Assembly (NCBI GenBank): GCA_964630685.1
Contig: CAZVVW010000001.1
Span: 94,236 to 155,843, forward strand
Direction: 5' to 3'
DNA length: 61,608 nt
Source: an uncultured Methanosarcinales archaeon
GTDB taxonomy: Archaea > Nanobdellota > Nanobdellia > Woesearchaeales > BS150m-G63
Under the pieces are notes generated by a model, which was given only the letters and a program-made list of their open reading frames with translations, was not told where the DNA came from and made no database searches. A program made the position numbers and the translations under genes. Position 1 is the stretch's first letter. Every line of letters begins with the position of its first letter. Shown here piece after piece: positions 9,048-57,950 of the stretch.

Positions 9048-9064
9048 ATATTTCTAAATATAAT

Positions 9065-9082: not shown

Positions 9083-9163
9083 CAATGGATTATAAGGTGT
9101 TTCACTTATTAGTTCTTTAAAATTAATCAAATCAATTTAATTAATTGTGTTTTGGAGGAAATT

Positions 9164-10878: not shown

Positions 10879-10879
10879 A

Positions 10880-11236: not shown

Positions 11237-11240
11237 TAAT

Positions 11241-24802: not shown

Positions 24803-26011
24803 ATGAAAGGAAAATATTTATTTACAAGTGAAAGTGTGACTGAAGGTCACCCAGATAAAGTATGTGATAAAATTTCTGATGCTTTTTTAGATGAATGTTT
24901 AAGACAAGATAAAAACAGTAGAGTTGCTGTTGAAATTTTTACTACTACTGGTTTAGTTGTGTTGGGTGGAGAGGTTACAACTAAGGGATATGTAGATGCA
25001 CAAAAAATAGTTAGAAATGTATTAAAAGAGATTGGATATGATGAATCTGTTTCTGGATTTTGTTATAAAGATGTTGGTGTAATGAGTTCTATTCATGAAC
25101 AAAGTCCTGACATAAGTCAAGGAGTTACTGTAGGCGAAGGAGACGATAAAGAACAGGGTGCTGGAGATCAAGGAATGATGTTTGGTTACGCAACTAATGA
25201 AACAAAAGAATATATGCCTATGCCCCTTGTGTTTGCACATAAATTAACTATGAAACTTACTGAAGTAAGAAAAAAAGGAGAACTTGATTATCTTAAACCT
25301 GATGGAAAAAGTCAAGTTACGGTTGAATATGAAAATGGAACTCCAAAAAGAGTTGATGCAGTTGTTGTTGCATCACATCATGATAAAGATGTAGGTATAG
25401 AACAACTTAGAAAAGATATTAAAGAAAAAGTTATAGAACCTGTTTGTGGAGATTATTTAGATGAAAATACTAAATATTTCATAAATGCCACAGGAAAGTT
25501 TGTTTTGGGTGGTCCTCCAGCAGATACTGGGTTGACAGGTAGAAAAATAATCGTAGATACTTATGGCGGACACGGAAGTCACGGTGGAGGAGCTTTTAGT
25601 GGTAAGGATCCAAGTAAAGTAGATAGAAGCGCAAGTTATGCTGCAAGATATATCGCCAAAAATGTTGTTGCTGCAGGATTAGCTGACAAATGTGAAGTCC
25701 AAATAGCTTATTCTATTGGAGTTTCTGAGCCAGTTTCATTGTTAGTGCATACTTTTAGGACTAATAAGATTTCTGAAGAAAAGATAACTGAATTAGTTAA
25801 GAAACATTTCCCATTAAAACCTGCTGATATTGTTAAGGAATTAGATTTACTTAGGCCTATTTATCAAAAAACAGCTGCTTATGGGCATTTTGGAAGAGAT
25901 GATGCTGATTTCACTTGGGAAAAACTCGATAAGGTTGATGTGTTGAAGAAAGAGGCTGGAGAGTTAGGTGAATCTGAGATAAATGGCAAAGACGAAATGA
26001 TCGATGAGTAA
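24803..26011 (+). CDS. metK: S-adenosylmethionine synthetase, bacterial/eukaryotic type
   Basis: [26 protein letters not shown] and AAYGHFG motifs. Confidence 0.97.
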
Positions 26012-38201: not shown

Positions 38202-38312
38202 NNNNNNNNNNNNNNNNNNNNNNNNNNNNNNNNNNNNNNNNNNNNNNNNNNNNNNNNNNNNNNNNNNNNNNNNNNNNNNNNNNNNNNNNNNNNNNNNNNN
38301 NTTTCTTTCATT

Positions 38313-38960
38313 TTATCTAAACCTATCTACATTTATTTTTTTACAATATTTATTTATTGGACATTCGCTACATTTAGGCGATATTGGTTTGCAAATTGTC
38401 TGTCCAAATTGTACAAAAACATGATTAAATTCCTTCCAGTGTTTTTTAGGTAATTCTTTTTCTAACTCCTTTTCTGTCTGTTCAGGAGTTTTTGTTTTAA
38501 TCCACCCTATCCTGTTTGGGATTCTGTGACAGTGAGTATCAATAGGTAATGCATATTGGTCAAACGCAAATGCTAAAACTATATTTGCTGTTTTAGGGCC
38601 TACACCTTTTATGCTTAATAATTGTTCTTTGGTGTTGGGTGTTTTATTATTAAATCTCGTTAAAATTTCTTTTGAAACGTGTTTTAATATTCGTGCTTTC
38701 TTTTTGTAGTGTCCTGAAGAAAATATTAATTGTTCTAATTTTTTATCTGAAAGAGCTATTATTGCTTTAGGTGTATCTGCAACTGCAAATAGTCTTTCTG
38801 AAGCGATTTTTGTGTTTTTATCTTGAGTTCTCAAAGAAAGTAAGCAAGAAATAAGTATTTTAAAAGAGTCTGGTTTTCCCCTCATGCTGTTTAAGGTGGT
38901 TAGATTTAGGTCTGGAAATTTTTCTAAGAGTGCTTTCATTATTTCTTTTACATGTTTCAT
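38313..38960 (-). CDS. nth: Endonuclease III
   Basis: HhH motif IKGVGPKTA; IDTH; CKPISPKCSECPINKYC Fe-S cluster motif. Confidence 0.95.
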   Translation of the reverse strand: MKHVKEIMKALLEKFPDLNLTTLNSMRGKPDSFKILISCLLSLRTQDKNTKIASERLFAVADTPKAIIALSDKKLEQLIFSSGHYKKKARILKHVSKEILTRFNNKTPNTKEQLLSIKGVGPKTANIVLAFAFDQYALPIDTHCHRIPNRIGWIKTKTPEQTEKELEKELPKKHWKEFNHVFVQFGQTICKPISPKCSECPINKYCKKINVDRFR

Positions 38961-39649
38961 ATCTCTGCCTCTTTGATTAATAAAATCCCTGCGTTTTTTT
39001 CATATTCTATTTCAGATTCTTTTATTTTGATTTTTTTCTTAAACATTGGCCCATCTATTACAAAAGTTTCCAGTTCTCCTCCTTCGCCAGCAGGATTAAT
39101 TTTGTATTTTTTGTTTAGTGATACTAGTTTTTTTATCATATCTGAATCAATAGTTTTTCCCAAGTAAGAATCATCTAAAGGGTAACCGAATACACCCACA
39201 ATAACTGTTTCAAATTTGTTTTCTTCTAATTCTTTTAGAAGTTCTACTTGGTCCATCTGCCAAAGAGGGTTAAAACACCAAAGATTTAGCTCTGAACAGA
39301 TTTTTTGTACTCTTTCTGCTTGATAGACAGATGCTAAAGCACCTGTTACAACACCTTGTATATTGTATTTTTCGATTGCTGTTTTTATGAGAATTTTAAG
39401 ATCTTTTAGTTCTATCTCTTTTTCTCCTTCTGTGATTTTTGTGATTAATGGAAGATCTATTGCTTTTGCTTGAAGTTTTGTTAGTTCAATGTTTGGGGTG
39501 TGAAACATATAGCTTTCTGGATTTTTTGATAGCACTGAAAGTAGACAAGCTATTTCATGCTCTTTGCTCGCTTTGTACATTGCATAGCAGGAGTCTTTTC
39601 CACCTGAAAATAATACACTTAATCTCATTCGTGATTCTATTGGTTTCAT
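38957..39649 (-). CDS. Diphthine-ammonia ligase (Dph6)
   Basis: FSGGKDS, SYMFH and GEGGELET motifs. Confidence 0.92.
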   Translation of the reverse strand: MKPIESRMRLSVLFSGGKDSCYAMYKASKEHEIACLLSVLSKNPESYMFHTPNIELTKLQAKAIDLPLITKITEGEKEIELKDLKILIKTAIEKYNIQGVVTGALASVYQAERVQKICSELNLWCFNPLWQMDQVELLKELEENKFETVIVGVFGYPLDDSYLGKTIDSDMIKKLVSLNKKYKINPAGEGGELETFVIDGPMFKKKIKIKESEIEYEKNAGILLIKEAEI

Positions 39650-39747
39650 AATGTGAACCTTGTAAGTATTATTTGCTTTTTTCTTTAGTACTTATAAAAT
39701 TTATGTAGAAAACTATTTAAAGAATTCACTTTAAAGATTATAAAATA

Positions 39748-40590
39748 ATGTATAATTCAGAGAAATATAGAAGTTTGGATATCTATTTGAAAGAATTATC
39801 TAGTTCAAAATATGATCCATTGGACCCTTATGAAGAAATAGAATTAATACAAGAATATCGTGCTGGAAGCAAGAAAGCATTTGATAAATTAGTTACATCT
39901 AATCTGAAATTTGTGATTAGTGTTGCGAAAAAATCCAAAAGCAATCTTAATTTAGAAGATAAAATAGGTTTTGGAACTATGGGGTTAATGAGGGCTATTG
40001 AAAAATTTGATGAAACTAAGGGTTTTAAATTAATTTCTTATGCAGTTCATTGGATTAACCGATCGATTAATCAGGCTAATATAAATTATTCACGAATGGT
40101 TAGGATTCCTTCAAATGTGATTATTAATTTTGGGAAAATCAATAATTTTAAAGAAATATATCAACAAGAAAATGATGGTGCAAATCCTTCTGATGAAGTT
40201 CTTGAAAGAGAATTTAAAAATAAGGATAGTTTTTTGAAATCCACAAAAAAAGTTAAAAGAGAGTTATCTTTGGATAGTTCTTTTGATAAGGAATCTGATT
40301 ATGGTCTTTATAATGTTTTGATAGATGAAACGTTTAATGCTCCTGATTATGATGTTCTTAATAAGGATTTGAAAAAAGAGATATATCATATTATGGATAA
40401 AAGGTTAGATGATAGAGAAAAATTTATAGTTACAAGATTTATGGGTTTGGAAGGAGATTTTCCTTTGACTTTGAATAATTTAAGTGAGAGATTAGGTATT
40501 GGTAAGGAAAGAGTAAGACAAATTAAAGATAAAGCTATAAGGAAATTGATGAGAAGTCAAGACTTAAATTATTTAAGAAGTTATTTATGA
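39748..40590 (+). CDS. Bacterial-type sigma-70 factor (RpoD/RpoS-like, regions 1.2-4)
   Basis: NLKFVISVAKK; GLMRAIEKFDETKGFKLISYAVHWI; VRIP; SLD; TLNNLSERLGIGKERVRQI. Confidence 0.92.
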   Translation: MYNSEKYRSLDIYLKELSSSKYDPLDPYEEIELIQEYRAGSKKAFDKLVTSNLKFVISVAKKSKSNLNLEDKIGFGTMGLMRAIEKFDETKGFKLISYAVHWINRSINQANINYSRMVRIPSNVIINFGKINNFKEIYQQENDGANPSDEVLEREFKNKDSFLKSTKKVKRELSLDSSFDKESDYGLYNVLIDETFNAPDYDVLNKDLKKEIYHIMDKRLDDREKFIVTRFMGLEGDFPLTLNNLSERLGIGKERVRQIKDKAIRKLMRSQDLNYLRSYL

Positions 40591-40635
40591 ACCCTTACCC
40601 AAATGTTTATAAATTAATGATTTATAGGTGCTAAA

Positions 40636-40959
40636 ATGGAAGATTTAGTTGATATATTTAAGAGAAATGATTGTGGGAGAATATCCATCTTTGAAGAGAT
40701 AGAAGCAGAAGAAAAAAACAAACGTATTGCTCCAAAACACATCTCAAATACTGATTTTCTTGATGAAATGCTAGATTATAATGAAGATAATTTAAGCAAT
40801 GATCCTTTTATAGAAAGTTACAACATTGTTCATGGCGAAGATGAATATTTAGATAATATTTATGAAAGACTCAATGGAAGAACAATAGAAGAATCTTCTT
40901 CTGCACATACAAAATATTGTGACCATGTCCGTTGCGGATATATTGGCCATAGAGATTAA
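40636..40959 (+). CDS. Acidic hypothetical protein
   Basis: AGGTG RBS; D/E-rich; C-terminal H/C cluster (HTKYCDHVRCGYIGH). Confidence 0.6.
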   Translation: MEDLVDIFKRNDCGRISIFEEIEAEEKNKRIAPKHISNTDFLDEMLDYNEDNLSNDPFIESYNIVHGEDEYLDNIYERLNGRTIEESSSAHTKYCDHVRCGYIGHRD

Positions 40960-40963: not shown

Positions 40964-41575
40964 TTATTCTCCCTTTCCTTTATATCTTCCTCTAGATTCT
41001 ACTTTTTCGAATCTTAGGAGGATTTCTTTGTAATCTTGTGCTTTTTTGTAGCCAATTAGAATTGATTTAAAACCATCTTCCCATATTCTGTGATGTTTGC
41101 TTTCTAAAGCCTGTCTTAATAAGTGCAGGTCAACTGCTTTATCTTCTAATCTTTTTGAAAAAAAGCTCAATCCAAAGTCAATAAAATATAATTTATCTGG
41201 AGACCCATCTGTCAAAAGCATGTTTGATGTAGTGAGATCACCATGAATTATGTCATTGTTATGCAATAGGGCGATTTTTTCTCCGATTTCTTTGCATAAT
41301 TTTTTATGATCTTTTTTTTCTAAAACATCTCTTAATCTTGGTGCATTGATATAACTCATCACTATCTTCATCTCTTTATCGTCTATTTCTATTAGTTTTG
41401 GTGCTGGAAAACCTATTTCCTGTAATTTTTTTAGTATTTTAGATTCTCTTCTTGTTCTGAATTTTCTTAGTTTTACATCTATGTCTTTATGTCTGTAGGA
41501 TTTTTCAATTCTGTGCTTTATTACATCTTTATCTAAGTAAATGATTGCTTCTGCACCATCGCCTATTTGTTTCAT
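40964..41575 (-). CDS. bud32: KEOPS kinase Bud32
   Basis: GAEA, KSYRH, RTRRE, HGDLTTSN, IDFGL, AVDL and RGRY motifs. Confidence 0.93.
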   Translation of the reverse strand: MKQIGDGAEAIIYLDKDVIKHRIEKSYRHKDIDVKLRKFRTRRESKILKKLQEIGFPAPKLIEIDDKEMKIVMSYINAPRLRDVLEKKDHKKLCKEIGEKIALLHNNDIIHGDLTTSNMLLTDGSPDKLYFIDFGLSFFSKRLEDKAVDLHLLRQALESKHHRIWEDGFKSILIGYKKAQDYKEILLRFEKVESRGRYKGKGE

Positions 41576-41611: not shown

Positions 41612-42012
41612 TTATAATCTCCTTTCTAAATACACAACATCCTCGCCCTTATAATATTCTTTAAATCCATATTTATTCAACAAATATAATGCGTGGTTGT
41701 TCTTTTCTCCAGTCTTAACAAACCATCTATCATAATTAGTTTGTTCTTCAAGCAGATTAAACATTTTAGAACCCATACCATTTCCTGGTTTTTTCATTGC
41801 CCCTAACCATAAGTACAAATCCCCACACACTTCATAAGACACTATTAATCCTTGTACTTTTTCTTTATCTAAAGCAACTTGGATATAATGTTTGTTTGTG
41901 CTTAATCTTTCGATTATTTCTTCTTGAGTTATGTCTGCTTTTTTTGGGATACTAACTTTAATCAAATCAAATTTGCTATCACATCTTCTAAGGTTCCTTT
42001 TATAATCTCCAT
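41612..42012 (-). pseudogene. GNAT acetyltransferase, frameshifted
   Basis: Start ATG at 42012 (MEIIKGTLEDV). A 5-bp duplication ATCAA-ATCAA at 41961-41970 breaks the frame. GNAT motifs GNGMG and KYGF. Confidence 0.7.
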
Positions 42013-42999
42013 TTTGTCACCCTATAAGCTAGTTTAGCTAATTCTGTATAAGATCCAACTGCAACTCTAACATACTCTTAATTTTCAATTCCCTTAATTT
42101 TGTCTAAATCCACTATTTTTACATTCAAGTGATTCATCAATTCTTTTAATGGATAATTACTATTTCTGGCCATCAAGAAATTAGTTTGACTATCGACTAT
42201 CTCATCAGCACAATAACTAATAATATTTTTAAGAATATTTCTTCTATAAATAATGTCTTTTCTTACTGTTTCTTTGTTATTGGCATTGAGTTTTGTCTTG
42301 GCTAACAAGATAGCATTTCTACTAGGTTCTGGTGTATCTAATTGGTCTAGGATTTCCCTAGAAGCAACTATATACCCTATTTTATCCTTAGTCATCCCAT
42401 AAAATTTAGACAAAGTCTTAATCACAACTAAATATGAATTATCATTTACTAAATGTGCAATAGAATGCTTTTCTCTAATTAATTCAATGTATGCTTCATC
42501 AACTATCAATAGTTGTTGATTTTTTTTAGTGTATTCAATCAAACCACTAAGTTCATTATGCGTTCCTGTTGGATTATTTGGATTAGATAACAAAATAGCA
42601 TCTAAATTACTGTTAATAGCTGGAATACTATAATCTTTATTTCTTGGAATAATTTCATATTCCTTGCACATCCCAATATACTCGAAATAATCTGGAACTA
42701 ATAACCCTACTTTTCCTTTAACTATTTTATTGAGAACTTCTTTAAGCAGAGTAAGTGAACTATTGCTAACTTTAATGTTGCTTTCTACTGTGCTACATTG
42801 CCGACTTATAATGTCTTCTAAACTGCTTGAAGATTGTTTTCCTTTGGTACATAATTCAACATTGGTTTTGATTGTATCTAAGTCTATTTCGCTTAAACGG
42901 GCACTGCGGATAATGAATTTGTAATCTTGGGATTACTGATAACCCATTGCCCGCTAAGGATCCATAATGATTTATTTTTTCTATATTTGTGATTTCCAT
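42000..42999 (-). pseudogene. PLP aminotransferase class I/II (HisC/CobD-like), disrupted
   Basis: SNPNNPTG, VDEAY and TLSKFYG motifs. Premature TAA at 42078-42080 precedes the conserved YVRVAVG. The ATG at 42999 (GGAGGT RBS) is out of frame with the body. Confidence 0.75.
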
Positions 43000-43293
43000 T
43001 GTTTTATACCTCCAATTGGTTGATTTTTGAATTATAAATAAAAAAATTAGTTTGATGCATTATTATTGTAAGTCAATTTTCATCCTTTAATATTCAAGAA
43101 GTTTAGCTTCAAAAAATTATAAAGAGTTATTATGACTCTAACAATATTAATAGAAAGGGCTAAAGCTAAAAGAAAGTGTTTTTCTTTTTCCTATAACTTT
43201 AGTATTTACCATATTCTATTCAAAAACAGAGATTTGTATAAAAAGCTTTCGATTAATTGTCCGGAAGATTTTCGAATTTTAATGGACATTATT

Positions 43294-44254
43294 TTAGAAT
43301 AAACTCATCAATTTTCCAATATAGAAAATATAAAACAATAAAAGTAACCACCCTTCCCATCTTGTTATTTCTTTATTTTGAGTCATAAAGAAATATAAAA
43401 ATGTTGCAATTAAAACCATTGGAATTCCAAACGTAATCATTATTGGAGGTATGATTAAAGGACTAATTAAGGCTGAAATCCCCATAACTGCAAAAGAATT
43501 AAAGATACATGAGCCTAATACATTTCCAACTGCAATTTCTGCTTTTCCTTTTCTTGCGACATTTACACTTACAACAAATTCAGGTAAAGATGTTCCCAAA
43601 GCTATTGCTCCTGCTGCGATTATTTCTTTTCCAATATTTAGAATTGTTGATAATGCTATAACTGATTCAATTGTATATCTTGCACCCACATAAATAAACA
43701 ATGAACTTATGGTTAATGTGATTAATGTCGTCCAATTGAATTTTTTTGTTTTTAATGTTGTTCTCATTTCTTTTTCTGCCATTAAATCTGGGTGTTTTTT
43801 TTTCGGTTTTTACAGTATAAGTCAAATAAATTATAATACCTAGGATACACAACAACGCTTCAGGTAATGTAAATATTCCATCATAAATGGTTATTGCCAA
43901 TAAAAATGTAGAACCAATTAACATTGGAAGATCTACTCTTATAATCTCAAAACCAATCTTTAATCTTTTTCCAACTATTGCAGATACACCTAAAACAAGA
44001 AAAATATTAGTAATATTAGAACCAATTACATCACTTACAACTATCTCCGAAGCATTATTTAAAACAGCAAAAATAGAAGTAATTAATTCTGGAAGCGATG
44101 TTCCAATAGATACGATTGTTACACCAATTAAGAATGCTGGAAGCCCAAAAAATATACCTATTTTTTCAGCAGAATCTGTAAAGTAATCTGATGCTTTAAT
44201 TAACACAAACATACTTATTATAAAAATTATTATCCAAGTGAATAATCCAAACAT
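43294..44254 (-). pseudogene. Ca2+/Na+ antiporter (CaCA, YrbG-like) frameshifted at an A9 tract
   Basis: The two GTSLPE alpha-repeats lie in separate frames. Removing one T from 43795-43803 fuses them (EKKHPDLMAEK). Confidence 0.8.
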
Positions 44255-45643: not shown

Positions 45644-46303
45644 ATGGGAAAAAAATATGGATCAGGAAGACTTGGTGGATTATGGAGTGGTGCATTAGCT
45701 TTAAAGGGATCAGTTGCTATTGGATTACTTGGAGCTTTTTTAGCATATACAAATATTAGTACAATAAAAGAAGCAGAATATAATTTATTAGATAAAAATC
45801 AAAAGGTAGAATCAGGATATTTTCAAGACCCACCAGGATTAGAAACAATATGGAATTCAAATGAGGCAGGAAATGTTGAAACCTTTTTACAATATAAAAA
45901 AGGAAAAAATTTAGTAACTAAAGTTGAAATTATGGAAGATATGCTTCCTAAAAATGAAACTATGGTTGAAGGGTTAAAAGAAAGATATCAAGAAGGAAAT
46001 GTTGAGGGTAATTTTAGTGATGATTGTTTTGGATTGTTCAAATCTGCATGTTTATCTGAATATACTGGACTTGATTCAGTAGTTAATAACCTGACTTTTA
46101 GTGTAACAACTAATGGGATTGGAAAAAATGAATTGTATTTTAATTACAATAATGGGGAGAAGGTTTATAGTAAAAAAGTTGGTGTTGAACTTTTCAAAGA
46201 TTACAACCAAAAGGAAGGATTAGTTACTGAACCAAAAGAAGATCAAAAAACATCAATTATTGAGATGTTTAATTTTTTAGATGGCTTATATGGGGAAAAA
46301 TAA
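45644..46303 (+). CDS. Hypothetical membrane-anchored protein
   Basis: Gly-rich N-terminal TM; possible internal repeat (NEAGNVETFLQY versus NGIGKNELYFNY). Confidence 0.7.
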   Translation: MGKKYGSGRLGGLWSGALALKGSVAIGLLGAFLAYTNISTIKEAEYNLLDKNQKVESGYFQDPPGLETIWNSNEAGNVETFLQYKKGKNLVTKVEIMEDMLPKNETMVEGLKERYQEGNVEGNFSDDCFGLFKSACLSEYTGLDSVVNNLTFSVTTNGIGKNELYFNYNNGEKVYSKKVGVELFKDYNQKEGLVTEPKEDQKTSIIEMFNFLDGLYGEK

Positions 46304-46306
46304 AAA

Positions 46307-46831
46307 ATGACTAAACTAACGCCTGAAAAAGAAAAGGGAACAAGGTTTGAGATTTTCTTAGAGCAGATTTTAAAACAAAGCGGTTATCAAAATGTTTTGA
46401 GAAATGTTGAATACCGTAAAGAAAGATATGTATTCAGACAAGCAGATGTTAGTTATAATTTAATTAAAGATGGGCAACTGAAATTAGTTGTTGTTGAAGC
46501 AAAATATTCTTCTAATTTTGATATAAGTTATGAATTAAGGGGTGGAGAAAAGGAAAAGAATGGCCAAGTAATTGAAAAAATTAACAATGTTGTTGATGAA
46601 ACTTATGAAAGATGTAAATTTATTGGAGCTGATATTTCTGTATTGGTTACAAATAAAAGTTTTGATGATCAGATTATAAGTGCAGCAAGTGAAAGAAATA
46701 TCAAACTTCTTGATGGGGAAGATTTATTGAATATTTACAATAAATTAGGTAAAAAAGGTACGATTGATACTGCAATAGATAATATTAATTTAGAAAAATA
46801 TAATCTGAATAAAAATATGATTTACATATAA
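46307..46831 (+). CDS. Mrr-like PD-(D/E)xK endonuclease
   Basis: KGTRFE...GY, QADV, VVEAK, VLVTN..F and IKLLDG motifs. Confidence 0.8.
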   Translation: MTKLTPEKEKGTRFEIFLEQILKQSGYQNVLRNVEYRKERYVFRQADVSYNLIKDGQLKLVVVEAKYSSNFDISYELRGGEKEKNGQVIEKINNVVDETYERCKFIGADISVLVTNKSFDDQIISAASERNIKLLDGEDLLNIYNKLGKKGTIDTAIDNINLEKYNLNKNMIYI

Positions 46832-46834
46832 TGC

Positions 46835-46872
46835 TTGTTGTATTAAACACTACAGCTCAAGTTTATATAAAA
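46835..46872 (+). promoter_or_regulatory. Cluster operator copy 2 + TATA
   Basis: TTGTTGTATTAAACACTACAGCTCAAGTTTATATAAAA. Confidence 0.7.
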
Positions 46873-46990
46873 GATTATATTATTATAATATAGGATTTCC
46901 GTAAGGAATATCTTACTAATTAACTAAAAACAAAATTAATTGATGTAGCTTTAGCTATATCATGGATGTATTCATCCAGAGGATTCGTAA

Positions 46991-47326
46991 ATGGGAGCAA
47001 TAAAAACATTGGCATATACTGCCTTACTTGCTGGAGGAATTGCTGGAGGTTATCATTTTGGAGCTAACAGTTGTTCTGCAGATCAGGAATATAACATAAA
47101 TAGAGAAAACAAAATAGTAAGTTTAGAGTCAAAGACACTAGGAACATCATACGAACTAAAACAGATTGGTGGAGATTTCTACTTAGGAGATTCAAATCAT
47201 AATCTGAAAGGAGTTCAAGCATTATCTATGTATGAAACAGAAAAGAAAGTTGAATCAAAGATAAATGGTTTAGAAAGTAAATTAGATTCTTTAGAAACTA
47301 AACTTAATTTTCAAAAAGGAGATTGA
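46991..47326 (+). CDS. Small exported/membrane protein with C-terminal coiled coil
   Basis: N-terminal hydrophobic segment; heptads VESKINGLESKLDSLETKL. Confidence 0.7.
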   Translation: MGAIKTLAYTALLAGGIAGGYHFGANSCSADQEYNINRENKIVSLESKTLGTSYELKQIGGDFYLGDSNHNLKGVQALSMYETEKKVESKINGLESKLDSLETKLNFQKGD

Positions 47327-47364
47327 TTGTTGTATAAGACACTACAGCTCAAGTTTATATAAAA
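47327..47364 (+). promoter_or_regulatory. Cluster operator copy 3 + TATA
   Basis: TTGTTGTATAAGACACTACAGCTCAAGTTTATATAAAA; 36/38 identical to copy 2. Confidence 0.7.
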
Positions 47365-47424
47365 AGTAAGCTTAAGCTGTGATATAAATGAATGGGAGGT
47401 ATTTGCTCCCTGGAGGCAATAAAA

Positions 47425-48540
47425 ATGGGAGAATTTGATTTTGATGAAGAAAATGGGGGAAATTTTGATACTATAAATCAAGATATAGATCTAGAAAAAA
47501 CAATCTCTGAAACAGAAGTGGATGAAAGGGCAAGAAAAGTAGCGAGACTTGAAAATATGAAAAGAGAGCGGATGGAGTCCTTAAAAAAAGTAGATGATAC
47601 TGTAAAAAGATATTCTGGAGAACGTGTTTCGGTTACTCAAATATGGAATAACGCACTTGAAGATGTAGTTAAAAGTTATGGAATTGGACAAAATGTAAAT
47701 GGATTAAGAAAAAAAGTATACGACACCCTTAGAAAAGTTGGAATAGATATGTATAAAAGAGATGCAAATAAATTTTTAGATTCTGCTCAAGGAAGGGCAG
47801 AAAAATTAGAAGACACTCTTGAATATTTGAATAAAAGATTAAACAATGATGTTGGAAAACAAAAAGGAATTAAGATAAGATTAGAAGAAGATACTGAAAC
47901 TGCTACTGCAATAGCTGACGCAATTGTTCAATCAAAAACCATAAAAGAAGAATATCAAATAGAGATTAAAAACAAAGAGAAAGAAGTTAGGCAGTTATAC
48001 CAAGATGCTAGAGATAATTCTGATATGGACTATAGGGATGACATTGCTTATGTAAAAGATGAAGTTAAAAAATTAAAAAAAGAGTCTACTGGAGTAGATA
48101 CTGATCTTAGAAACTTAAGCACTAAAATGAAAAAGTTTTATGTTAGGGTTAAGGCAGAAAAAGCTATTATGGCTGGTATTGATATTGTGTATAATGGTGG
48201 ACAAGAAACCTTATCTGATTTACAAGCAGAAATAGATATTAGTAGAGAATTCATTAATAATGGAAGTCTTGTTGATGATGGATTAGGAAGAGCAATCCAA
48301 GATATTGGAGATATAACTCAAATATACACTCCTGCACTAGCTGGTATGGGTGAAACACTTGGTGGCGCTTTAGTAGAATCTATTAACAAAGTTAATGGGG
48401 ATATGGAAGCTTACAAAAGTCAAGTGAAAGATAAAAAATACTTGAAAGAGTTAGAAATCCAAACTAACGAAAACAAACAGGCACTTAATTCCAGTATGGA
48501 TGAAATGATATCTGAGTTTACTACAATGCCTTACAAATAA
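47425..48540 (+). CDS. Long alpha-helical coiled-coil protein
   Basis: GGAGG before ATG 47425; extended heptad repeats; no catalytic motifs. Confidence 0.75.
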   Translation: MGEFDFDEENGGNFDTINQDIDLEKTISETEVDERARKVARLENMKRERMESLKKVDDTVKRYSGERVSVTQIWNNALEDVVKSYGIGQNVNGLRKKVYDTLRKVGIDMYKRDANKFLDSAQGRAEKLEDTLEYLNKRLNNDVGKQKGIKIRLEEDTETATAIADAIVQSKTIKEEYQIEIKNKEKEVRQLYQDARDNSDMDYRDDIAYVKDEVKKLKKESTGVDTDLRNLSTKMKKFYVRVKAEKAIMAGIDIVYNGGQETLSDLQAEIDISREFINNGSLVDDGLGRAIQDIGDITQIYTPALAGMGETLGGALVESINKVNGDMEAYKSQVKDKKYLKELEIQTNENKQALNSSMDEMISEFTTMPYK

Positions 48541-48586
48541 TTTTTTTCTTTTATTTTTTATTTTTTTGTAGAGAACAAAAAGCAAA

Positions 48587-50149
48587 ATGAAAAACATTAA
48601 TTTAGAGGATCGTGTATTGGATAGCACTGCTTTAAGTACTAAAGAAGAGCTAAAACCATTAATAGATAATCTAAAAATAAATTTAACTAGTCGTTTTGGA
48701 AGAATTGCAGGTAGTTTTAAGGCGAGCGATTTAACTAAAAAAGTAATAGGTATGTATGGGGGGATTTACAAATCTCTCAAAAAAGAAGTATCTAAACAAA
48801 GAAAAAAAGAAGAATCGTCTGAAGATGAGTTTTTTCGTTCTTATTTAAGTTATGTTGCAAGTGAAGCTACAATCCAAATTTTAGGGAATGGAGAAGAAGG
48901 TGCTTTAGTGAGATCTTATGGGACTAGGAGACCAATCAATTTTAATCTAACACTTAATAAAACTGATCAAACAGCACTAACAGATGCTTCAAAAGGAATA
49001 TGTAATGCTGTTTTAAATTCTGGATCTTTGGATAATGTGAAATCAGAGATTAAGAGTTATCTTAGGACTATAGAAGATTATGTGTTGGAAAAAATGGATC
49101 AACCCATTCATTCTAATCTGAAAAAAAGATATAAAAATATGAATGTTAGTGGGAAAAACTTCAAAGTGAATGGAATAAAAAAACCTAAAGTATCTGATCA
49201 GAAAGAACCTGGTGTGGAAAATAATTATAAAAAAGGATTGGAAGAAGTGATACTCGACCCTGTCAGAAGGGACGATATCGTTGCAAATGAAATGGGTATT
49301 AATATTATTGAAACCGAAGTGCCTTGTTTATTACACTATGATTCTGTTGAAAAGAGAAATCCTTTTTTAGGATTCAACCAATATATTCTATTTGTTGGTG
49401 ATAAAGGAACTGGAAAAACAATGATGGCAAGATATGGTATGACTCTTGCTAAAGAAGTGGGTGAAAAAAATAATATTTCTTTATCATTAGTAAAACTAGA
49501 ATTTGAAGATAGATGGCAATATGGTCCTCTTGAGAATATTAGAAAACAATTTTCAGAGATTAGTGAAGGGACAAGACCTTATGTTATCTTTATTGATGAA
49601 ATTGATACAAAAATTCCTTCAAGAGGGAATGGATTAAAAGATGGATACAGAAAAGATGTAGTTGGAGAATTCCTTAAATTTCGTGGCGGAGGAGATTATA
49701 TCAATAAAGGTAATTATATTATTATGGCTACAACTAATGAGCCAAATAACATTGATCCTGCAATACTTAATGTGTTTAAAGTAGCAAATCTTAGAGGTCC
49801 TGAAACACCCCAAGATAAATTACAAGTGCTTTACAATAATCTACGTTCTGGAATATCTCAAGGGTATGTGCAAGTAGAAAAAGAAGAATGGGCAACAATA
49901 GGAAGGATGTTGGGTCAATATGAATTAACTGGAAGAGATTTAGTTAATATTGCTAATGGTGCTAGGGAAAAATATAGGGGCATTGCAACAAATATCCCTT
50001 TTATCGGAAGTGCAACTTCTAAAGAAAGAATGACTAAACAGATATTAAATAGAGATGGGTTAGCTTATGTTACAACAAAACAAGATATTATTGATTCTAT
50101 TACTTCGCAGATTGAAAAAGAAAAATTGATTGAGAGGTCTTATATCTAA
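48587..50149 (+). CDS. Classical-clade AAA ATPase with unknown N-terminal domain
   Basis: GDKGTGKT, IFIDEID, ATTNEPNNIDPAIL and LTGRDL motifs. Confidence 0.85.
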   Translation: MKNINLEDRVLDSTALSTKEELKPLIDNLKINLTSRFGRIAGSFKASDLTKKVIGMYGGIYKSLKKEVSKQRKKEESSEDEFFRSYLSYVASEATIQILGNGEEGALVRSYGTRRPINFNLTLNKTDQTALTDASKGICNAVLNSGSLDNVKSEIKSYLRTIEDYVLEKMDQPIHSNLKKRYKNMNVSGKNFKVNGIKKPKVSDQKEPGVENNYKKGLEEVILDPVRRDDIVANEMGINIIETEVPCLLHYDSVEKRNPFLGFNQYILFVGDKGTGKTMMARYGMTLAKEVGEKNNISLSLVKLEFEDRWQYGPLENIRKQFSEISEGTRPYVIFIDEIDTKIPSRGNGLKDGYRKDVVGEFLKFRGGGDYINKGNYIIMATTNEPNNIDPAILNVFKVANLRGPETPQDKLQVLYNNLRSGISQGYVQVEKEEWATIGRMLGQYELTGRDLVNIANGAREKYRGIATNIPFIGSATSKERMTKQILNRDGLAYVTTKQDIIDSITSQIEKEKLIERSYI

Positions 50150-50150
50150 A

Positions 50151-51806
50151 ATGCCAAAACCAAGAAATATAGATTATGAGAAAACGAGAAAAAGAATAAT
50201 AAGAGGATACAAAGATAGGGGATATAATATTGTTGATGGAAGTGGGGTGTCAGGAGAAAAACAAACGCTTCATAAGAAAGAAAAAAAGATTGATGAAAAA
50301 GAAAAACTACCAATCCAAGATATTGAAAAAAAAGAAGATGGTGGTAATGGCAAAGATAATAATTTAGAAAAAACAGTGAATCAAGAATTTAATCCTATAA
50401 TTAGAACCAAACATGTAGCAAGAAACACTTCAAGGCCATTACATAAACTTCATTCTGTGTATAAAACAATTGAAGATAAAGCATTATATTTATCTCCTGT
50501 TTTGGATGTTGATTTTTCTAATGGGAACAATCTTTCTTTAGGGGAAGGAAAAACTGAAAGTATCACTCTTGGTGGAGAAGCGTATAATTCTGTACTTCTT
50601 TACACTCTTCTTACGAGTGTTATGGATAAAGGAAAAATGTTGGTTTGTGGACCTCCTGGTTCTGGTAAGACGAGTAGTTCAAGATTTATTGGTAGTGCTG
50701 TGAATAATCTGCTTGTGGATTATATCAAACACGCTACACTCTATGGTCACCCTGAACAAACAGAAGAAAAAATGATTGCGATGTTTGATCCTATTAAAAT
50801 GATTAGGGGTGAAAGAAAACTGATTGTGAGGGATTTTTTGAAAAGCCCAATAAAAGTTATAGATGAAGTTAATAGACTGCGTCCTGAATCATTATCAATA
50901 TTGTATGAGCTATTAAATTCTGGCTCTGTAACTTATCAAGGCCAATTGATTAAAGCGCGAAAAGGACCTTTGTTTGCAACAGCAAATGCTTCGGATTCTG
51001 GAAATTATGACATACCCCCTCCATTTATGGATAGATTTAATGTTGCTGTTTTTGTAGATACAATTAACCCATATTATTTAGAGAGTTTTGAAAAACAAAG
51101 AATGGGTAATTCTAATAATTTAGAAAGTATGGTGAAGATTAATGACCCTTTAACTCCGCAAGATTTGGGGGTAATAAAAAGAGACCTCTATAATGTGAAT
51201 ATGCCTTCTGAAGAAATGGGGCGAATAGCTCATTTTTTAGCAGAATTAAGTGGGTGTGATATGGCTGGGGTAAGTATTGAAAGAAAAACTAAAGGTAACA
51301 CAACTGAAAAAAAACCTCCTGCGCTATGTAATGATTGTCATTTTTATGGAACAGAAAAATCTATCTGCTACAAAACAGAAGATGGATTATCTGCAAGAGC
51401 TCTTGAGAGTGTTGTTAATTATAGTAAGGCGCTTACTTACTGGAGAGGAAAAAACACTGTTGGAAGCGATGATGTTGCAGCTGTAGTGCCTTATGCAACA
51501 TGGTTTAGAGTAAGTCCAACAAGGGCTGCTTTTGAAAAAGAACCAAGATATGTAAATGACAGAATTGGATTAATGAAAGATCTATTTGATGTTTCTTCAC
51601 AAAGTTATGATGAAATAGTTAAAGCTATGCCAGAGTATAAACAGATAACTGCTCTTGTTTATTCAAGCACGAATGGAAATAGTTCTAGTATTAATGTGCA
51701 AAAAAATGAAATTAAAAGAATGATTGAAACTGCTGGAAAATTAGATAGTACAGCTAAATTTCCTTTGATAATATCATTGAAAAAAATGTATAATTATGCC
51801 AAATGA
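50151..51806 (+). CDS. MoxR-like AAA+ ATPase
   Basis: GPPGSGKT, IDEVNR, ATAN, FMDRF and LSARA motifs. ATG 50151 is the likely start. Confidence 0.85.
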   Translation: MPKPRNIDYEKTRKRIIRGYKDRGYNIVDGSGVSGEKQTLHKKEKKIDEKEKLPIQDIEKKEDGGNGKDNNLEKTVNQEFNPIIRTKHVARNTSRPLHKLHSVYKTIEDKALYLSPVLDVDFSNGNNLSLGEGKTESITLGGEAYNSVLLYTLLTSVMDKGKMLVCGPPGSGKTSSSRFIGSAVNNLLVDYIKHATLYGHPEQTEEKMIAMFDPIKMIRGERKLIVRDFLKSPIKVIDEVNRLRPESLSILYELLNSGSVTYQGQLIKARKGPLFATANASDSGNYDIPPPFMDRFNVAVFVDTINPYYLESFEKQRMGNSNNLESMVKINDPLTPQDLGVIKRDLYNVNMPSEEMGRIAHFLAELSGCDMAGVSIERKTKGNTTEKKPPALCNDCHFYGTEKSICYKTEDGLSARALESVVNYSKALTYWRGKNTVGSDDVAAVVPYATWFRVSPTRAAFEKEPRYVNDRIGLMKDLFDVSSQSYDEIVKAMPEYKQITALVYSSTNGNSSSINVQKNEIKRMIETAGKLDSTAKFPLIISLKKMYNYAK

Positions 51807-51850
51807 AATAAGACTTAAAGAGTCTTAAATCATTTTAAGAAAAAATTAAA

Positions 51851-53479
51851 ATGATATCAGAAAAACAGATAGACTGGACATGGAATAAAGTAAAAGAGTT
51901 TTGGACTCATGTTAATCTAGATAAACCTAAAGTGTATATGCGAGAAGAACAAGAAGGGTTGGGGGGAGAAATTGCTGCTTTTGATCAGGCAAATAAAAAA
52001 GTATATGTTGATGAAGCCAATCTAGAAAAAATACTTGGAAAAGATAAATTTGGAACTGTGTTAAATCACGAAGTTGGACATCATAAATTATGCCCTGTTA
52101 ATCTTAGAGAATATTTTAGACTTACTGCTAATGCTTACAAAGTTACAAGAAACATCAAATTATCTAAATTAGTAGAGAATCTTTTTGCAGATTTAATTGT
52201 GAATACTCATTTGTATGAAGAAGGTAATAAACAGATAGTTGATGTGTATAAAGAATTTTCAAAGCAGAATAAAACAAAGATGTGGCAATTCTATATGGCT
52301 ACTTTTGAAAATATGCTTGGAAAACCAGGAATCATCAATAATAAAGAAATGAAAGAAGAGATGAAAAAAGATGCTGCTAAACTTGGAGAAATGATGTCTA
52401 AATCTGTGTACAAACAAAGTGAATGGCCAAAATCCATCAGAGAATTAGCTAAATATGTTAAAAAGTATATGGAACAGGATGCTCAACCACAAGGAGATGG
52501 AATTTCAAAAAAGCAGAATAAAGAAAAAAATATGAAAAAACAAAAAGAAACTATGATGGATGAACAAGGAGTTAGTGATTTTCTTCCGTTCAAAAAATAT
52601 AGTAAAAACAAGGAAGTTCGTAAACAACAAGCAAAGGTTGTTGAAAAAGAGTTAAAGGGGTTATCAAAAGAAATTGGGGGAGATGATTTTAAAAAAGTGC
52701 TTAAGGGTCTTGGATTAGGAACTGACTCGCAAGCAAAAATCTGGCTTTATAGAGATTTGGCTTCTAGCTATATGTTAGACTTGCCAAAAAATATGGCAGG
52801 TGTTAAATCTAGTGTGCCTTTGGTTCCTGAAAAATGGAGAGTTTCAGACCCTGCTGAAAAATTAAATGTAGAGTATTCTCTTTCAAATTTTGGGATTTTG
52901 GTGCCTAATGTAACAACTTATCAATTTAATTCAAAAAAACACAGTTATCGGGTTGAGGGAGATGAGGCTCCTGATTTATTGATAGCTATTGATTCAAGTG
53001 GAAGCATGCCAGATCCAGACCACTACATGTCTTTTCCTGTGCTGTCTGCTATATTATCTGCACGAACAGCACTTGAATATGGGAAAAAAGTAGGGGTTGT
53101 TAATTTTTCAAATTCACATAAAAAAGTAGATTTTACTAATGACAGTCAAAAAATAGACGAAGCGCTTACTTCATATATTGGAAATGGAACAGAAATTCCT
53201 GGTAAAGTTATAAGAGATATGATTAGCAAAAACAAGTATCCTTCACATTTATTGATTATCAGCGATACTGAAATCTATAATCTAAAGCCAGAAATAATTA
53301 ATCTAGAATATGCGCTTAAGAAAGGAAAAGCGGGCGGAACTATCTTTTTAGATTGTAAACCATCTCATAACACAAAGATGCTTTCGGAGATTGGATTTGA
53401 TGTACAATTTACAAGAAATTTTTCAGATTTAGCAGATTTGAGTCTTAAAAAAACAAAGGGGTTGTATGAGAAAACATAG
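51851..53479 (+). CDS. HEXXH metallopeptidase-like + vWA protein
   Basis: HEVGH...N..AD..VN at the N-terminus; MIDAS DSSGS, GT and ISD at the C-terminus. Confidence 0.85.
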   Translation: MISEKQIDWTWNKVKEFWTHVNLDKPKVYMREEQEGLGGEIAAFDQANKKVYVDEANLEKILGKDKFGTVLNHEVGHHKLCPVNLREYFRLTANAYKVTRNIKLSKLVENLFADLIVNTHLYEEGNKQIVDVYKEFSKQNKTKMWQFYMATFENMLGKPGIINNKEMKEEMKKDAAKLGEMMSKSVYKQSEWPKSIRELAKYVKKYMEQDAQPQGDGISKKQNKEKNMKKQKETMMDEQGVSDFLPFKKYSKNKEVRKQQAKVVEKELKGLSKEIGGDDFKKVLKGLGLGTDSQAKIWLYRDLASSYMLDLPKNMAGVKSSVPLVPEKWRVSDPAEKLNVEYSLSNFGILVPNVTTYQFNSKKHSYRVEGDEAPDLLIAIDSSGSMPDPDHYMSFPVLSAILSARTALEYGKKVGVVNFSNSHKKVDFTNDSQKIDEALTSYIGNGTEIPGKVIRDMISKNKYPSHLLIISDTEIYNLKPEIINLEYALKKGKAGGTIFLDCKPSHNTKMLSEIGFDVQFTRNFSDLADLSLKKTKGLYEKT

Positions 53480-53493
53480 AAAAGGTGAAAAAA

Positions 53494-54987
53494 ATGACAC
53501 TAAACATATTAAATAAGGATTTTTTCAAGACAGATATAGGTAAAAGGCTTGCTAAGAAGTATTTTGGTTATGATTATAGTGAAAAACCAAAAAATGATAT
53601 GGGGTTTTCCCAGAGTTTTGCTAGAAAAAGTTCCATTGATGAGACTGTTCAAGAAAAAAATGAACAGGATAATAGAAATGGTGTGGGAATTATTGATGTA
53701 TCAGAATCTTTGCCTGAACAATTACCCCTATTAGAAGAAGTTGTTGAAGAACCCAACTTCAAGGAATTGTTTCCTGACTGCGGTAAACAAAAGAAAAATG
53801 TTAATCAAAAAAATAATGGTGTTGGCGCTGTTGCACCTATAAAATCTATAAAATCTATGAACAACACCTTAGAATTGAATGAATTGGTTAATTATTACAA
53901 ACATCTTGGTCTTGTTGGGGAAGAAAATATTGCGTGTGCAATGACTTTAGCTGCGATTAATGGTTCTTCATTTGGAGTTGAAGGCTATAGTGGTTCTGGG
54001 AAAACTTTTGTTGTGGATAAATTAGTGGATAATCTTTTGCCAGATGTTTATAGAATCCAACAATCAAGCAAATTGGCTATTTTTAATGATATTGATAAAA
54101 TTAATGGAAGTAAATTTATTTATATTCCTGAACTTCAAAAAGCAATGAAAGATAAGAAATCTCCAATTATTGAAGTAATTAAAGATCTTACTGAAGGAAA
54201 AGATGCTAACAGAATTGTGACAAGTAGAAAAGGGAAAGGTGTAACAGAATATTCAATTAAGAGTGGCGTTAGTGTGATATATACGCTTGCTTTGGAGAAT
54301 TATTTCAAAAAAGACGAAGAGAGTTCTAGAAGATTGATTAGGCTTAGAACTGATTCTTCCCAAGAACACTTAGATGAAATACATGAAACTAAAGCAAAAA
54401 ATAGATATTCTATTGGGAAAAGTAAGTGTGCTATGAAAAAATTAGAGCAAAAAGTTAAGGAACATGTCAGTGATTGTATTGCACTTAATGAAATAAATAT
54501 CATTGATCCTTTTTCAGAATACGTAACTGATATAATTCCAAAAACACAAAAATCAGTTGGTTATATCGACCATTATTACTCTTTGTTAGATGGGTGCGCA
54601 AAATTCCATTATAATCAAAGACAAAAAGTGGATATTGGTGGAGAAACTTATTTGATTGTAAACTTAGAAGACCATTACAATGTGTTTCAGATGTATTTTA
54701 ATGAATTCGCTCAAACGCTGAAAGATCTAGCAACAGATGAGGATAAATTAAGGGAGCTGAGTGTAGTTGATAGACCTAATTGGGAAAAATGTTTTTATGA
54801 TGGATGTGAAATAATGACTAATAGTGCTGAATTAAAAAAGCTGAGAAACCAATATCCTGGTGTGATAAAAGATTGGTATGATTCACAAGTTAACAATAAT
54901 GTTATAAATACTATTGATTACATGGATGGTAAAGACAAAATAATCGTTAATGTTAACCTTATTTTAGGTGGGGAAGATGGTAAATGA
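53494..54987 (+). CDS. P-loop ATPase (primase-associated/MCM-like AAA+)
   Basis: GLVGEE, GYSGSGKT, IYIPE, SRR and DSSQEH motifs; AGGTGA RBS before ATG 53494. Confidence 0.7.
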   Translation: MTLNILNKDFFKTDIGKRLAKKYFGYDYSEKPKNDMGFSQSFARKSSIDETVQEKNEQDNRNGVGIIDVSESLPEQLPLLEEVVEEPNFKELFPDCGKQKKNVNQKNNGVGAVAPIKSIKSMNNTLELNELVNYYKHLGLVGEENIACAMTLAAINGSSFGVEGYSGSGKTFVVDKLVDNLLPDVYRIQQSSKLAIFNDIDKINGSKFIYIPELQKAMKDKKSPIIEVIKDLTEGKDANRIVTSRKGKGVTEYSIKSGVSVIYTLALENYFKKDEESSRRLIRLRTDSSQEHLDEIHETKAKNRYSIGKSKCAMKKLEQKVKEHVSDCIALNEINIIDPFSEYVTDIIPKTQKSVGYIDHYYSLLDGCAKFHYNQRQKVDIGGETYLIVNLEDHYNVFQMYFNEFAQTLKDLATDEDKLRELSVVDRPNWEKCFYDGCEIMTNSAELKKLRNQYPGVIKDWYDSQVNNNVINTIDYMDGKDKIIVNVNLILGGEDGK

Positions 54988-57094: not shown

Positions 57095-57112
57095 ATTGGT
57101 TAGATTGATTGA

Positions 57113-57832
57113 CTATTTAGCAGATTCCCACAATAAAGAAAAGTATTTCTTATAAGATTCTGCTATAGCTTTATTTTTTATTTGGATATTTAATAATGGT
57201 TTAGTCCAAAGAGTTAAGAAAACTTCTTCTCCACAAACAACTGTAGATACTTGAGAGTCAAATCTTTCTGGAAGATATTTTGCAGAAGTTAATGCTATTT
57301 TATTTAAGAAAGTGATTCTTTCTTTAGCATCATGATTGTAAATGTGTTTCATAGGTATTTTTTGGGTTATTCTTTCTTTATGGAAATGAGGGATTTGTGT
57401 TTTTACTATTTCTGGTGCTGTTGGAGGAATTCCATAAGCGATTATTTCTTCTTTATATTTAAGTAATCCATATAAAAGATTCATAAATGATTGTACTCCT
57501 TCAAAAATATGCGCTTCCCCCCTTGATTGGGCTAATTTTTTGCTCATCATTAATTGTGGAAGAATTTCTTTAATTTTATTTTCTTTATCTTTAATAATTC
57601 TAAGTAAAGCTTTTGGATTTGTTGCTTCATATAATGTTGTATTGTCTCTTTGTATATATGCAGTAAGTCCTTTATCTGTTAATTTTTTTAGAGAATCATA
57701 AACATTTGCTCTGTGTAATTTACATTTATTAGATATAGAAGTCACTGTGCTTAATCCCAATCCCAAGAGTGTTGTGTAAATTTTAGCTTCATTAGGACTT
57801 AATCCGATTTCTTCTAAAATATCTTCATTCAT
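57113..57832 (-). CDS. TrmB-family transcriptional regulator
   Basis: LEEIGLSPNEAKIY...HRANVYDSLKKL..KG; C-terminal effector domain ending FSLLW. Confidence 0.9.
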   Translation of the reverse strand: MNEDILEEIGLSPNEAKIYTTLLGLGLSTVTSISNKCKLHRANVYDSLKKLTDKGLTAYIQRDNTTLYEATNPKALLRIIKDKENKIKEILPQLMMSKKLAQSRGEAHIFEGVQSFMNLLYGLLKYKEEIIAYGIPPTAPEIVKTQIPHFHKERITQKIPMKHIYNHDAKERITFLNKIALTSAKYLPERFDSQVSTVVCGEEVFLTLWTKPLLNIQIKNKAIAESYKKYFSLLWESAK

Positions 57833-57841
57833 TTTGATTTA

Positions 57842-57856
57842 ACGGAATATTTCCGT
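57842..57856. promoter_or_regulatory. Palindrome upstream of TrmB
   Basis: ACGGAA-TAT-TTCCGT in the divergent intergenic region. Confidence 0.45.
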
Positions 57857-57950
57857 ATTTCCTATAAAAATATATATAAAACAGAAAACTATATAAATAT
57901 TGTGATTAATATTACTAATTAGTAGTGAAATTAATTTTAAGGTTATAAAA

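Follow-up and report, generated by a model that had tools for sequence, protein, structure and literature searches.

A divergent sigma-70 family protein encoded among the housekeeping genes of a Woesearchaeota-type archaeon

Sigma factors define transcription initiation in Bacteria; archaea use TBP, TFB and TFE. The stretch of archaeal DNA analyzed here in its entirety (61,608 nucleotides of contig CAZVVW010000001.1, about 30% G+C, hereafter the window) encodes on its + strand, at 39748–40590, a 280-residue protein of the sigma-70 family that lacks region 1.1. With a slightly better than even chance of being right, this protein is taken to be a maintained, horizontally transferred, sigma-like DNA-binding protein that would no longer act as a canonical bacterial initiation factor. 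The phenomenon itself, i.e. sigma-70 genes in DPANN archaea, is already published, and the copy in the window adds a highly divergent member to it. The present analysis contributes an insertion or deletion that distinguishes the locus from that of a close relative, the finding that no homologue stands near the protein, and a host-like codon usage combined with a maintained reading frame. Also new are the replacement of docking and promoter-opening residues in a protein whose helix-turn-helix is kept, and a conserved gene order that speaks against an anti-sigma role for the downstream gene.

Architecture and key residues of the sigma protein

By alignment and predicted fold, the open reading frame (ORF) encodes a complete sigma-70 family protein extending from region 1.2 to region 4, as the initial annotation had proposed: it aligns end to end with RpoD, SigA and RpoS, and its AlphaFold2 model agrees. 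The interval first given for it, 39748–40959, had the correct start, but its end took in the next gene (ORF2, see below), the sigma ORF itself ending at 40590. In Pfam, Sigma70_r2 (PF04542) matches residues 48–107 with 36.3 bits (cut-off 24) and Sigma70_r4 (PF04545) residues 219–267 with 32.6 bits (cut-off 24.1), and the models of region 1.2 and region 3 have no match to the ORF at E ≤ 0.01. In NCBIfam, positions 2–237/238 of RpoD_Cterm align with residues 45–280 (2.8e-46), and the RpoS model aligns with residues 8–270 (1.7e-45). Every equivalog cut-off is missed at least 2-fold, with 158 bits versus 354 for TIGR02393 (RpoD) and 155.7 versus 378.7 for TIGR02394 (RpoS); all of the RpoD/SigA models, at least 20 in number, remain far under their cut-offs, and the superfamily model TIGR02937 alone passes (73.5 versus 42.9). 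Judged by these profiles, the protein is neither an RpoD nor an RpoS equivalog.

Comparison with PDB sequences (phmmer, E ≤ 1e-3) yields 79 distinct chains, the best being SigA (6.4e-35), in alignments that span the protein from residue 12 (in region 1.2, SigA residue 123 onward) to residue 280, its last. The AlphaFold2 model, computed from 62 sequences, has a mean predicted local distance difference test score (pLDDT) of 88, with values above 92 in region 2, lower confidence in region 3 (70–89) and the linker, and values of 92–98 in region 4; its top Foldseek matches in the PDB are sigma factors in holoenzymes (probability 1.0). On the + strand, region 1.2 comprises residues 12–44 (39781–39879) and is delimited by alignment with the SigA chains, the Pfam model being silent. 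Region 2 covers residues 45–120 (39880–40107), is recognized by Pfam and is non-canonical at Escherichia coli positions 394, 404, 406, 407, 409, 433, 436, 437 and 440. It is followed by region 3 with the 3.2 linker (residues 121–200, 40108–40347), which is placed by the RpoD_Cterm alignment and has helices at 122–141, 149–155 and 159–170 (pLDDT 63–89), and by region 4 (residues 201–280, 40348–40587), which Pfam recognizes. The isoelectric point (pI) of 8.97 is not unusual, 37 of 216 short homologues being as basic or more.

The residues were compared in an alignment of the protein with 263 homologues and E. coli RpoD (NC_000913.3), whose numbering is used throughout. Of the 58 columns conserved to 90% or more, the protein retains 48 (83%), the ten changes being R385K, Y394S, L404K, N409T, F427L, W433H, R436N, Q437R, E482V and V576L; the median number of deviations in these columns is 2 among the homologues, and only three of the 263 have 10 or more. 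Further changes are Q406G, E407F (E in 86% of homologues) and T440N. The deviations stand out at positions 404, 407, 409, 433, 436 and 437, all six of which are changed here, versus at most three in any homologue; two or more of the six are changed in 21 of the 263.

The functions of several of these positions have been described: contacts with the beta-prime coiled coil involve positions 403, 406, 407 and 409, recognition of position −12 depends on Q437 and T440 (PMC8321222), and strand separation is driven by Y430, W433 and W434, with W433 acting as a wedge at −11A (PMC4496690). At the four beta-prime contact positions, D403 is kept and Q406G, E407F and N409T are replacements, so that the protein does not show the canonical docking set; nor does it show the canonical −10/−12 set, Y430 and W434 being kept and W433H, Q437R and T440N replaced. 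With L404K and R436N, replacement extends to every one of positions 404, 406, 407 and 409, which serve docking on the beta-prime clamp helices, and 433, 436 and 437, which serve −10 opening and −12 reading. In region 4.2, the positions equivalent to the −35-reading residues R584, E585, R586, R588 and Q589 carry K, E, R, R and Q, i.e. four identities and the change R584K. The loss of E407 (to T) and the change Q437R are shared by P0213, one of the archaeal-labeled homologues introduced below; P0143 and P0151 are canonical.

In composition the gene resembles the other genes of the window, and the host-like AT content attributed to it by the initial annotation is borne out: its GC content is 26.9% (gene mean 29.9 ± 2.9), its GC content at third codon positions (GC3) 18.1% (19.5 ± 3.3), and its codon-usage distance to the window mean is the 14th lowest among 52 genes. 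A stop-free run of 280 codons has a chance of 1.7e-11 at this base composition. Two full-length variants of the protein are found, one residue different each. The TATA-like element that had been noted upstream is weak as sequence evidence: in the 98 bp upstream of the gene, the octamer TTTAWAWR occurs 0 times on the + strand and twice on the − strand, and in the whole window it occurs 110 times versus 182 ± 14 expected.

Relatives and published counterparts

Homologues were sought among 5.8 billion cluster representatives by a word-indexed search and exhaustively among 1.84 billion by HMMER. Outside the 90% cluster (4 members) to which the protein belongs, the best real matches are 39–43% identical in both searches, and no sigma homologue above ∼45% identity was found among ∼15 billion proteins. 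HMMER gives 67,288 matches at E ≤ 1e-3. The word-indexed matches form a plateau at 40–42% identity to RpoD/SigA proteins of 285–288 amino acids, named after Prevotellaceae, Paludibacter, Bacteroidaceae, Alistipes, Cyclobacteriaceae, Flavobacteriaceae and Marinimicrobia. Twenty representatives were looked up, 7 of which have a name and 13 none. Two are labeled archaeal, P0213 (Nanoarchaeota archaeon, 280 amino acids, 37% identical) and P0143 (archaeon, 279 amino acids, 40%); the other named ones are from Neomarinimicrobiota, Chitinophagaceae and Saprospiraceae. P0213 is likewise isolated, its own plateau lying at 43–45% identity to Marinimicrobia-type sigmas.

Some high-scoring or special matches were set aside. 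P0002 is rejected as closest relative, its high score coming from an internal duplication seen in its sequence, and P0128, another high-scoring match, shows two matched stretches. A phage origin is also rejected: the match to PHROG 351 concerns a generic sigma family, and the best match in the phage collection, 32.7% identical, is lower than the bacterial ones. The PADLOC match and the NCBIfam MzaA match reflect generic sigma similarity far under cut-off. As a separate observation, P0134 is a predicted protein of 7,852 amino acids with a sigma-like stretch at 4050–4305 that is 35% identical to the sigma of the window.

The trees, of 105 and 58 rows, mostly lack resolution, and no starred clade contains the protein. 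Together with P0213 it falls in a 12-row group that has a Shimodaira–Hasegawa-like approximate likelihood ratio (SH-aLRT) support of 89, is unstarred and also includes a Chitinophagaceae sequence; P0143 is placed in a different, starred clade. Terminal branches are long for the protein (1.73) and for P0213 (1.87) versus a median of 0.59. The initial annotation had suggested looking for a DPANN sigma clade. Approximately unbiased (AU) tests reject neither the two-member archaeal clade of the protein with P0213 (p 0.588, log-likelihood 4.7 above the free tree, with long branches) nor the three-member clade that adds P0143 (p 0.338, for only three archaeal-labeled rows, again with long branches). 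These trees support no claim of either a single or a multiple origin of archaeal sigmas, and they neither establish nor reject a DPANN clade. As donor, the most that can be named is the group of short primary sigmas found in the Bacteroidota/Marinimicrobia lineage, at no finer level.

Sigma-70 genes occur in DPANN archaea as family fam00359 and are most prevalent in Woesearchaeota, as reported by Castelle et al. (2021, PMC8204110), who excluded mis-binning, saw no anti-sigma factors in DPANN, noted that archaeal factors coexist with sigma and called the mechanism unclear. Their supplementary Table S3, with values assigned to columns by order, lists the family as K03086 with 221 sequences, a length of 280, signalP 0 and TMHMM 0, present in 39.3% of 196 Woesearchaeota, 37.8% of 90 Pacearchaeota, 37.8% of 37 Aenigmarchaeota, 16% of 25 Diapherotrites and 15.4% of 13 Micrarchaeota genomes (PMC8204110). 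The sigma described here resembles this family in its 280 residues and in its Woesearchaeota-type genome, a likeness by description only. It is unlike it in having no relative above ∼45% identity, in being absent from the corresponding locus of the closest genome found (L001, see below) and in deviating more at the docking and −10 positions than any other sequence examined.

The short SigA/RpoD proteins of Bacteroidota and Marinimicrobia also resemble it: they have ∼280–290 amino acids, start at region 1.2 without a region 1.1, provide the best named matches (40–42% over 97–100% of the query) and have the region 2.3 context I-S-Y-A-V, not S-T-Y-A-T. Titles of references indicate that region 1.1 is missing from the primary sigma of Bacteroides. 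Unlike these proteins, the sigma of the window is encoded by an archaeon, remains under the RpoD cut-offs, forms no supported clade with them and differs at the near-invariant positions 394, 404, 406, 407, 409, 433, 436 and 437. The eroded sigmas of insect endosymbionts (Hodgkinia and others) also have substitutions at 403, 406, 407, 409 and 437 (PMC8321222); unlike the present protein, for which no such partner is expected, they coexist and presumably co-evolve with a bacterial core polymerase. A last comparison concerns DPANN viruses, for which a 2025 paper reports two rpoS-like genes, one of them on a prophage (PMC12647753). These are divergent sigma-like genes associated with mobile elements of DPANN, a possible vehicle for the patchy distribution of sigma; unlike them, the present gene is flanked by conserved housekeeping, not viral, genes. 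No functional study of an archaeal sigma was found in the literature covered, subscription journals lying outside that coverage.

The locus and its closest relative

The neighbors of the sigma gene are archaeal. Upstream lies the gene of Dph6, the archaeal-type diphthine–ammonia ligase (38957–39649, − strand), which passes the archaeal equivalog TIGR03679 (281.6 bits versus a cut-off of 197.3, 3.1e-84); its relatives match from residue 8, and its conserved start is probably Met8 at 39628. Downstream, beyond ORF2, lies the gene of the KEOPS kinase Bud32 (40964–41575, − strand), which passes the archaeal equivalog TIGR03724 (207.4 bits versus 125, 1.4e-61). The spacers are 98 bp between Dph6 and sigma (119 bp from the conserved Dph6 start), 45 bp between sigma and ORF2, and 4 bp between ORF2 and Bud32. 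EndoIII, MazG, Dus, AMP phosphorylase, RtcB, a TrmB-like regulator and five tRNAs are also encoded in the window. A search with Dph6 against one genome per species gave the best 80 loci (1,163,539 bp in total), all with archaeal titles except two bacterial ones (L026 and L056); the top match, 85% identical, is L001, contig JADHVD010000007.1 of a Candidatus Woesearchaeota archaeon. By these sequence matches, the host is a Woesearchaeota-type DPANN archaeon. The two exceptions, titled ‘bacterium’ (L026) and ‘Desulfobacterales bacterium’ (L056), encode archaeal-type Dph6 proteins 57% and 54% identical to that of the window and are probably mis-binned archaeal contigs in public metagenome-assembled genomes.

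The only runs of N in the window are at 8089–8188 and 38202–38301, each of exactly 100 N and representing scaffold gaps. Gene order across the second gap is collinear with L001, which supports the join, and from 38302 to the window end there is no N, so that EndoIII, Dph6, sigma, ORF2 and Bud32 stand on one unbroken stretch. The placement of the sigma gene between Dph6 and Bud32 on gap-free sequence, as first described, is thus confirmed. Eight contigs, drawn from NCBI, JGI/IMG, Logan and ENA and up to 155,843 bp long, carry the identical sigma protein.

Comparison with L001, the closest genome found, by blastn against the window defines what is particular to this locus. In L001 the order is Bud32 (8944–9555, +), ORF2 (9578–9901, −), Dph6 (10001–10672, +), EndoIII and MazG, the counterparts in the window being 85.7, 67.3, 85.2, 89.8 and 83.2% identical, respectively. 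Positions 8902–9943 of L001 match window positions 41618–40595, and 10001–11325 match 39628–38304. Between these matches, the window has a block of its own of 966 bp (39629–40594) made up of the sigma ORF with 119 bp upstream and 4 bp downstream, in place of which L001 has 57 bp (9944–10000). The block sits where L001 has a short divergent promoter, the intergenic sequence that separates Dph6 from ORF2 being 99 bp long there. No sigma match (phmmer, E ≤ 1e-3) was found in the six-frame ORFs of the 80 loci, L001 included. ORF2 and Bud32 were found in L001 alone among them, so that none of the 80 loci is an outgroup with the Dph6–Bud32 synteny from which the insertion or deletion could be polarized. 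As for signatures of mobile elements, only short repeats at the level of chance in AT-rich DNA were seen, and none at the block ends 39629 and 40594.

ORF2 (40636–40959, + strand) encodes a protein of 107 amino acids that matches its first description as an acidic product with a His/Cys cluster: alignment and composition give a pI of 4.58, 26 Asp and Glu among the 107 residues, 3 Cys and 5 His, and a conserved C-terminal cluster formed by [H/C]91, C95, H97, C100 and H105. Its upstream region (40591–40635, + strand) contains the palindromic TATA box TTTATAAA at 40606–40613; these 45 bp align with the ORF2-proximal intergenic sequence of L001 as far as the sigma stop codon. ORF2 has no match in Pfam, NCBIfam, PHROGs or PADLOC, anti-sigma families included, and its sole homologue cluster, 68% identical, is a hypothetical protein of a Candidatus Woesearchaeota archaeon. 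The best score in the protein atlas, 0.83, is under lead level, and the AlphaFold2 model (mean pLDDT 49.6) is unusable. In L001, ORF2 occupies the same place, next to Bud32 and divergent from Dph6, with no sigma. Because it stands at the same site in sigma-less L001 with a conserved TATA box of its own, we infer from this synteny that ORF2 is an older, lineage-specific resident gene with its own promoter and not a dedicated anti-sigma factor.

Gene-content turnover is common at this locus, several more gene-sized differences between the window and L001 being found within 20 kb. A second block particular to the window in the blastn comparison (41619–43290) comprises a 117-residue ORF without known family and a class I/II aminotransferase fragment that covers only positions 148–242 of 361 of the Aminotran_1_2 profile; it looks like a gene remnant. 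L001 has no counterpart of it, and there the antiporter gene abuts Bud32 directly. This calcium/sodium antiporter is a single 347-residue ORF in L001 (7857–8900) and is split in the window (43294–44254, − strand) into two overlapping ORFs (43294–43782 and 43667–44254), which is a frameshift or a sequencing error. Conversely, a 6.8-kb stretch of L001 (968–7811) has no counterpart in the window, where it falls between 44353 and 44349.

Elsewhere in the window, other features are of separate interest. Another bacterial-type gene (24803–26011, +) encodes a bacterial/eukaryotic-type S-adenosylmethionine synthetase MetK (TIGR01034, 581 bits, three of three Pfam domains). A copper-handling cluster (9152–13451, +) comprises a CopZ-like chaperone, a membrane protein with an N-terminal heavy-metal domain and a CopA-type P-type ATPase. 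A Cas4-like PD-(D/E)XK nuclease is encoded at 22062–22847 (+; TIGR00372 79.7 bits, PDDEXK_1 2.1e-29); the window showed no further cas gene, no search being aimed at CRISPR arrays. Finally, large and mostly unannotated ORFs stand in a row at 45644–61234 (+, with one − gene), the products including an Mrr-like nuclease, two AAA ATPases (one MoxR-like AAA_5), a weak VWA domain, DUF5906, a transglutaminase-like protein and a PP2C phosphatase; a possible reading of this part is a defence island or an integrated element.

Competing explanations and significance

Under the preferred reading, a bacterial sigma gene would have been acquired horizontally by a Woesearchaeota-type DPANN archaeon, its architecture (regions 1.2 to 4, no region 1.1) deriving from the short primary sigmas of Bacteroidota/Marinimicrobia, and would have been kept by selection in a cell without bacterial core polymerase. 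The product would no longer be a canonical initiation factor and would most likely serve as an accessory regulator acting through its DNA-binding helix-turn-helix domain. The stand-alone DNA-binding regulator envisaged in the initial annotation fits the residues, docking and melting positions being replaced and the helix-turn-helix kept, and regulation itself is what we infer from them. Several points weigh against this reading. Residue changes are no proof that core binding is lost; alternative bacterial sigmas differ at these sites too, and E407 is absent from 14% of the 263 homologues. Insect endosymbiont sigmas with four of four docking positions replaced are still presumed to work (PMC8321222). 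Moreover, selection on the gene is read only from its open frame and kept columns, much of the selection history may come from an unsampled donor, loss in L001 would be as parsimonious as gain in the window, and the absence of bacterial polymerase subunits from the host is assumed from its archaeal identity.

Decay ranks first among the rivals, followed by adaptation to the archaeal polymerase and then by action on a bacterial polymerase. That the gene is a neutral passenger, i.e. a functionless transferred fragment that is intact through recent arrival or chance and is heading to decay, is improbable but the most serious of these objections. It would account for the absence of sigma from the orthologous site of L001, for the 10 of 58 changed columns with the long branch, and for the lack of the canonical partner in archaea, and the truncated aminotransferase in the second block, 1 kb away, indicates that junk insertions occur here. 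The codon usage and GC3, like those of the host, nevertheless argue against recent arrival from an ordinary bacterium, and the improbability of so long an open frame, the retention of 83% of near-invariant columns and of the whole helix-turn-helix, and the predicted confident folding of every domain do not suit a decaying gene. Neither does the occurrence of the same protein on 8 contigs, nor that of the family in 39% of Woesearchaeota genomes (PMC8204110). A lone recent transfer without homologues in relatives and with neutral evolution, which the initial annotation had named as fatal to its proposal, is seen only in part: the gene is absent from L001, and in the collections searched it has no homologue above ∼45% identity. 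The other outcome feared there, a chimeric assembly joining a bacterial fragment to archaeal sequence, is the least credible of all the alternatives. The window is indeed a scaffold with two 100-N gaps, but neither lies between sigma and its archaeal neighbors, the homology with L001 breaks off no more than a few bases from the sigma stop codon and starts again at Dph6, the composition is host-like, and the protein is known from contigs of four sources with no bacterial sigma more than 45% identical; the locus is not a scaffolding artefact.

The remaining rivals assign the protein a partner. In archaeal RNA polymerase, a clamp coiled coil would correspond structurally to the beta-prime clamp helices, and it is conceivable, though unlikely, that sigma docks there through a region 2.2 surface adapted to it and modulates initiation alongside TBP and TFB. 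Such docking would explain why replacements concentrate at docking positions within a kept fold, and P0213 also lacks E407 and shares Q437R; the control mechanism that PMC8204110 calls unclear, with archaeal factors coexisting with sigma, leaves room for it. It is countered by P0143 and P0151, two of the four other archaeal-labeled or archaeal-looking sigmas, which keep canonical residues; the window contains no polymerase subunit gene. A broader version, in which a re-tooled sigma with rewritten docking and opening residues and its helix-turn-helix kept would dock on the archaeal clamp or recruit TBP/TFB to specific sites, is given the same low credence; if true, it would represent a cross-domain hybrid transcription control, patchy among DPANN and perhaps spread by DPANN viruses. 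Less plausible still is a canonical sigma, or an effector as the initial annotation had it, working with a bacterial core polymerase, for instance that of a bacterial partner cell. Full sigma architecture and the retained −35-reading residues would favor it, but of the four beta-prime docking positions only one is unchanged, the W433 wedge and Q437 are also replaced (for the roles of these positions, PMC8321222 and PMC4496690), the family table of PMC8204110 gives signalP 0 and TMHMM 0, and no secretion gene adjoins sigma. The pairing of sigma with ORF2 as sigma and anti-sigma factor is rated marginally lower still. The two genes follow each other in the same orientation, 45 bp apart, and the Cys/His cluster of ORF2 is reminiscent of zinc-binding anti-sigma factors. 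The motif of the latter is Hx3Cx2C, whereas the cluster of ORF2 is C-terminal with the spacing [H/C]x3CxHx2C. The partner role once suggested for ORF2 is further contradicted by its presence at the same place in sigma-less L001 and by the conservation of its 45-bp upstream region, TATA box included, as far as the sigma stop codon. No anti-sigma family matches it, and Castelle et al. saw no such factors in DPANN (PMC8204110).

For the biology of these archaea, the finding bears on a question explicitly raised in PMC8204110, namely what makes some two-fifths of Woesearchaeota retain a gene for sigma. The two related genomes, which differ by exactly this gene at the locus, provide a natural comparison. 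The pattern of substitutions, for its part, points to those activities of a sigma factor that would be dispensable in such a cell, polymerase docking and −10 opening, and to the one retained, DNA binding by the helix-turn-helix.

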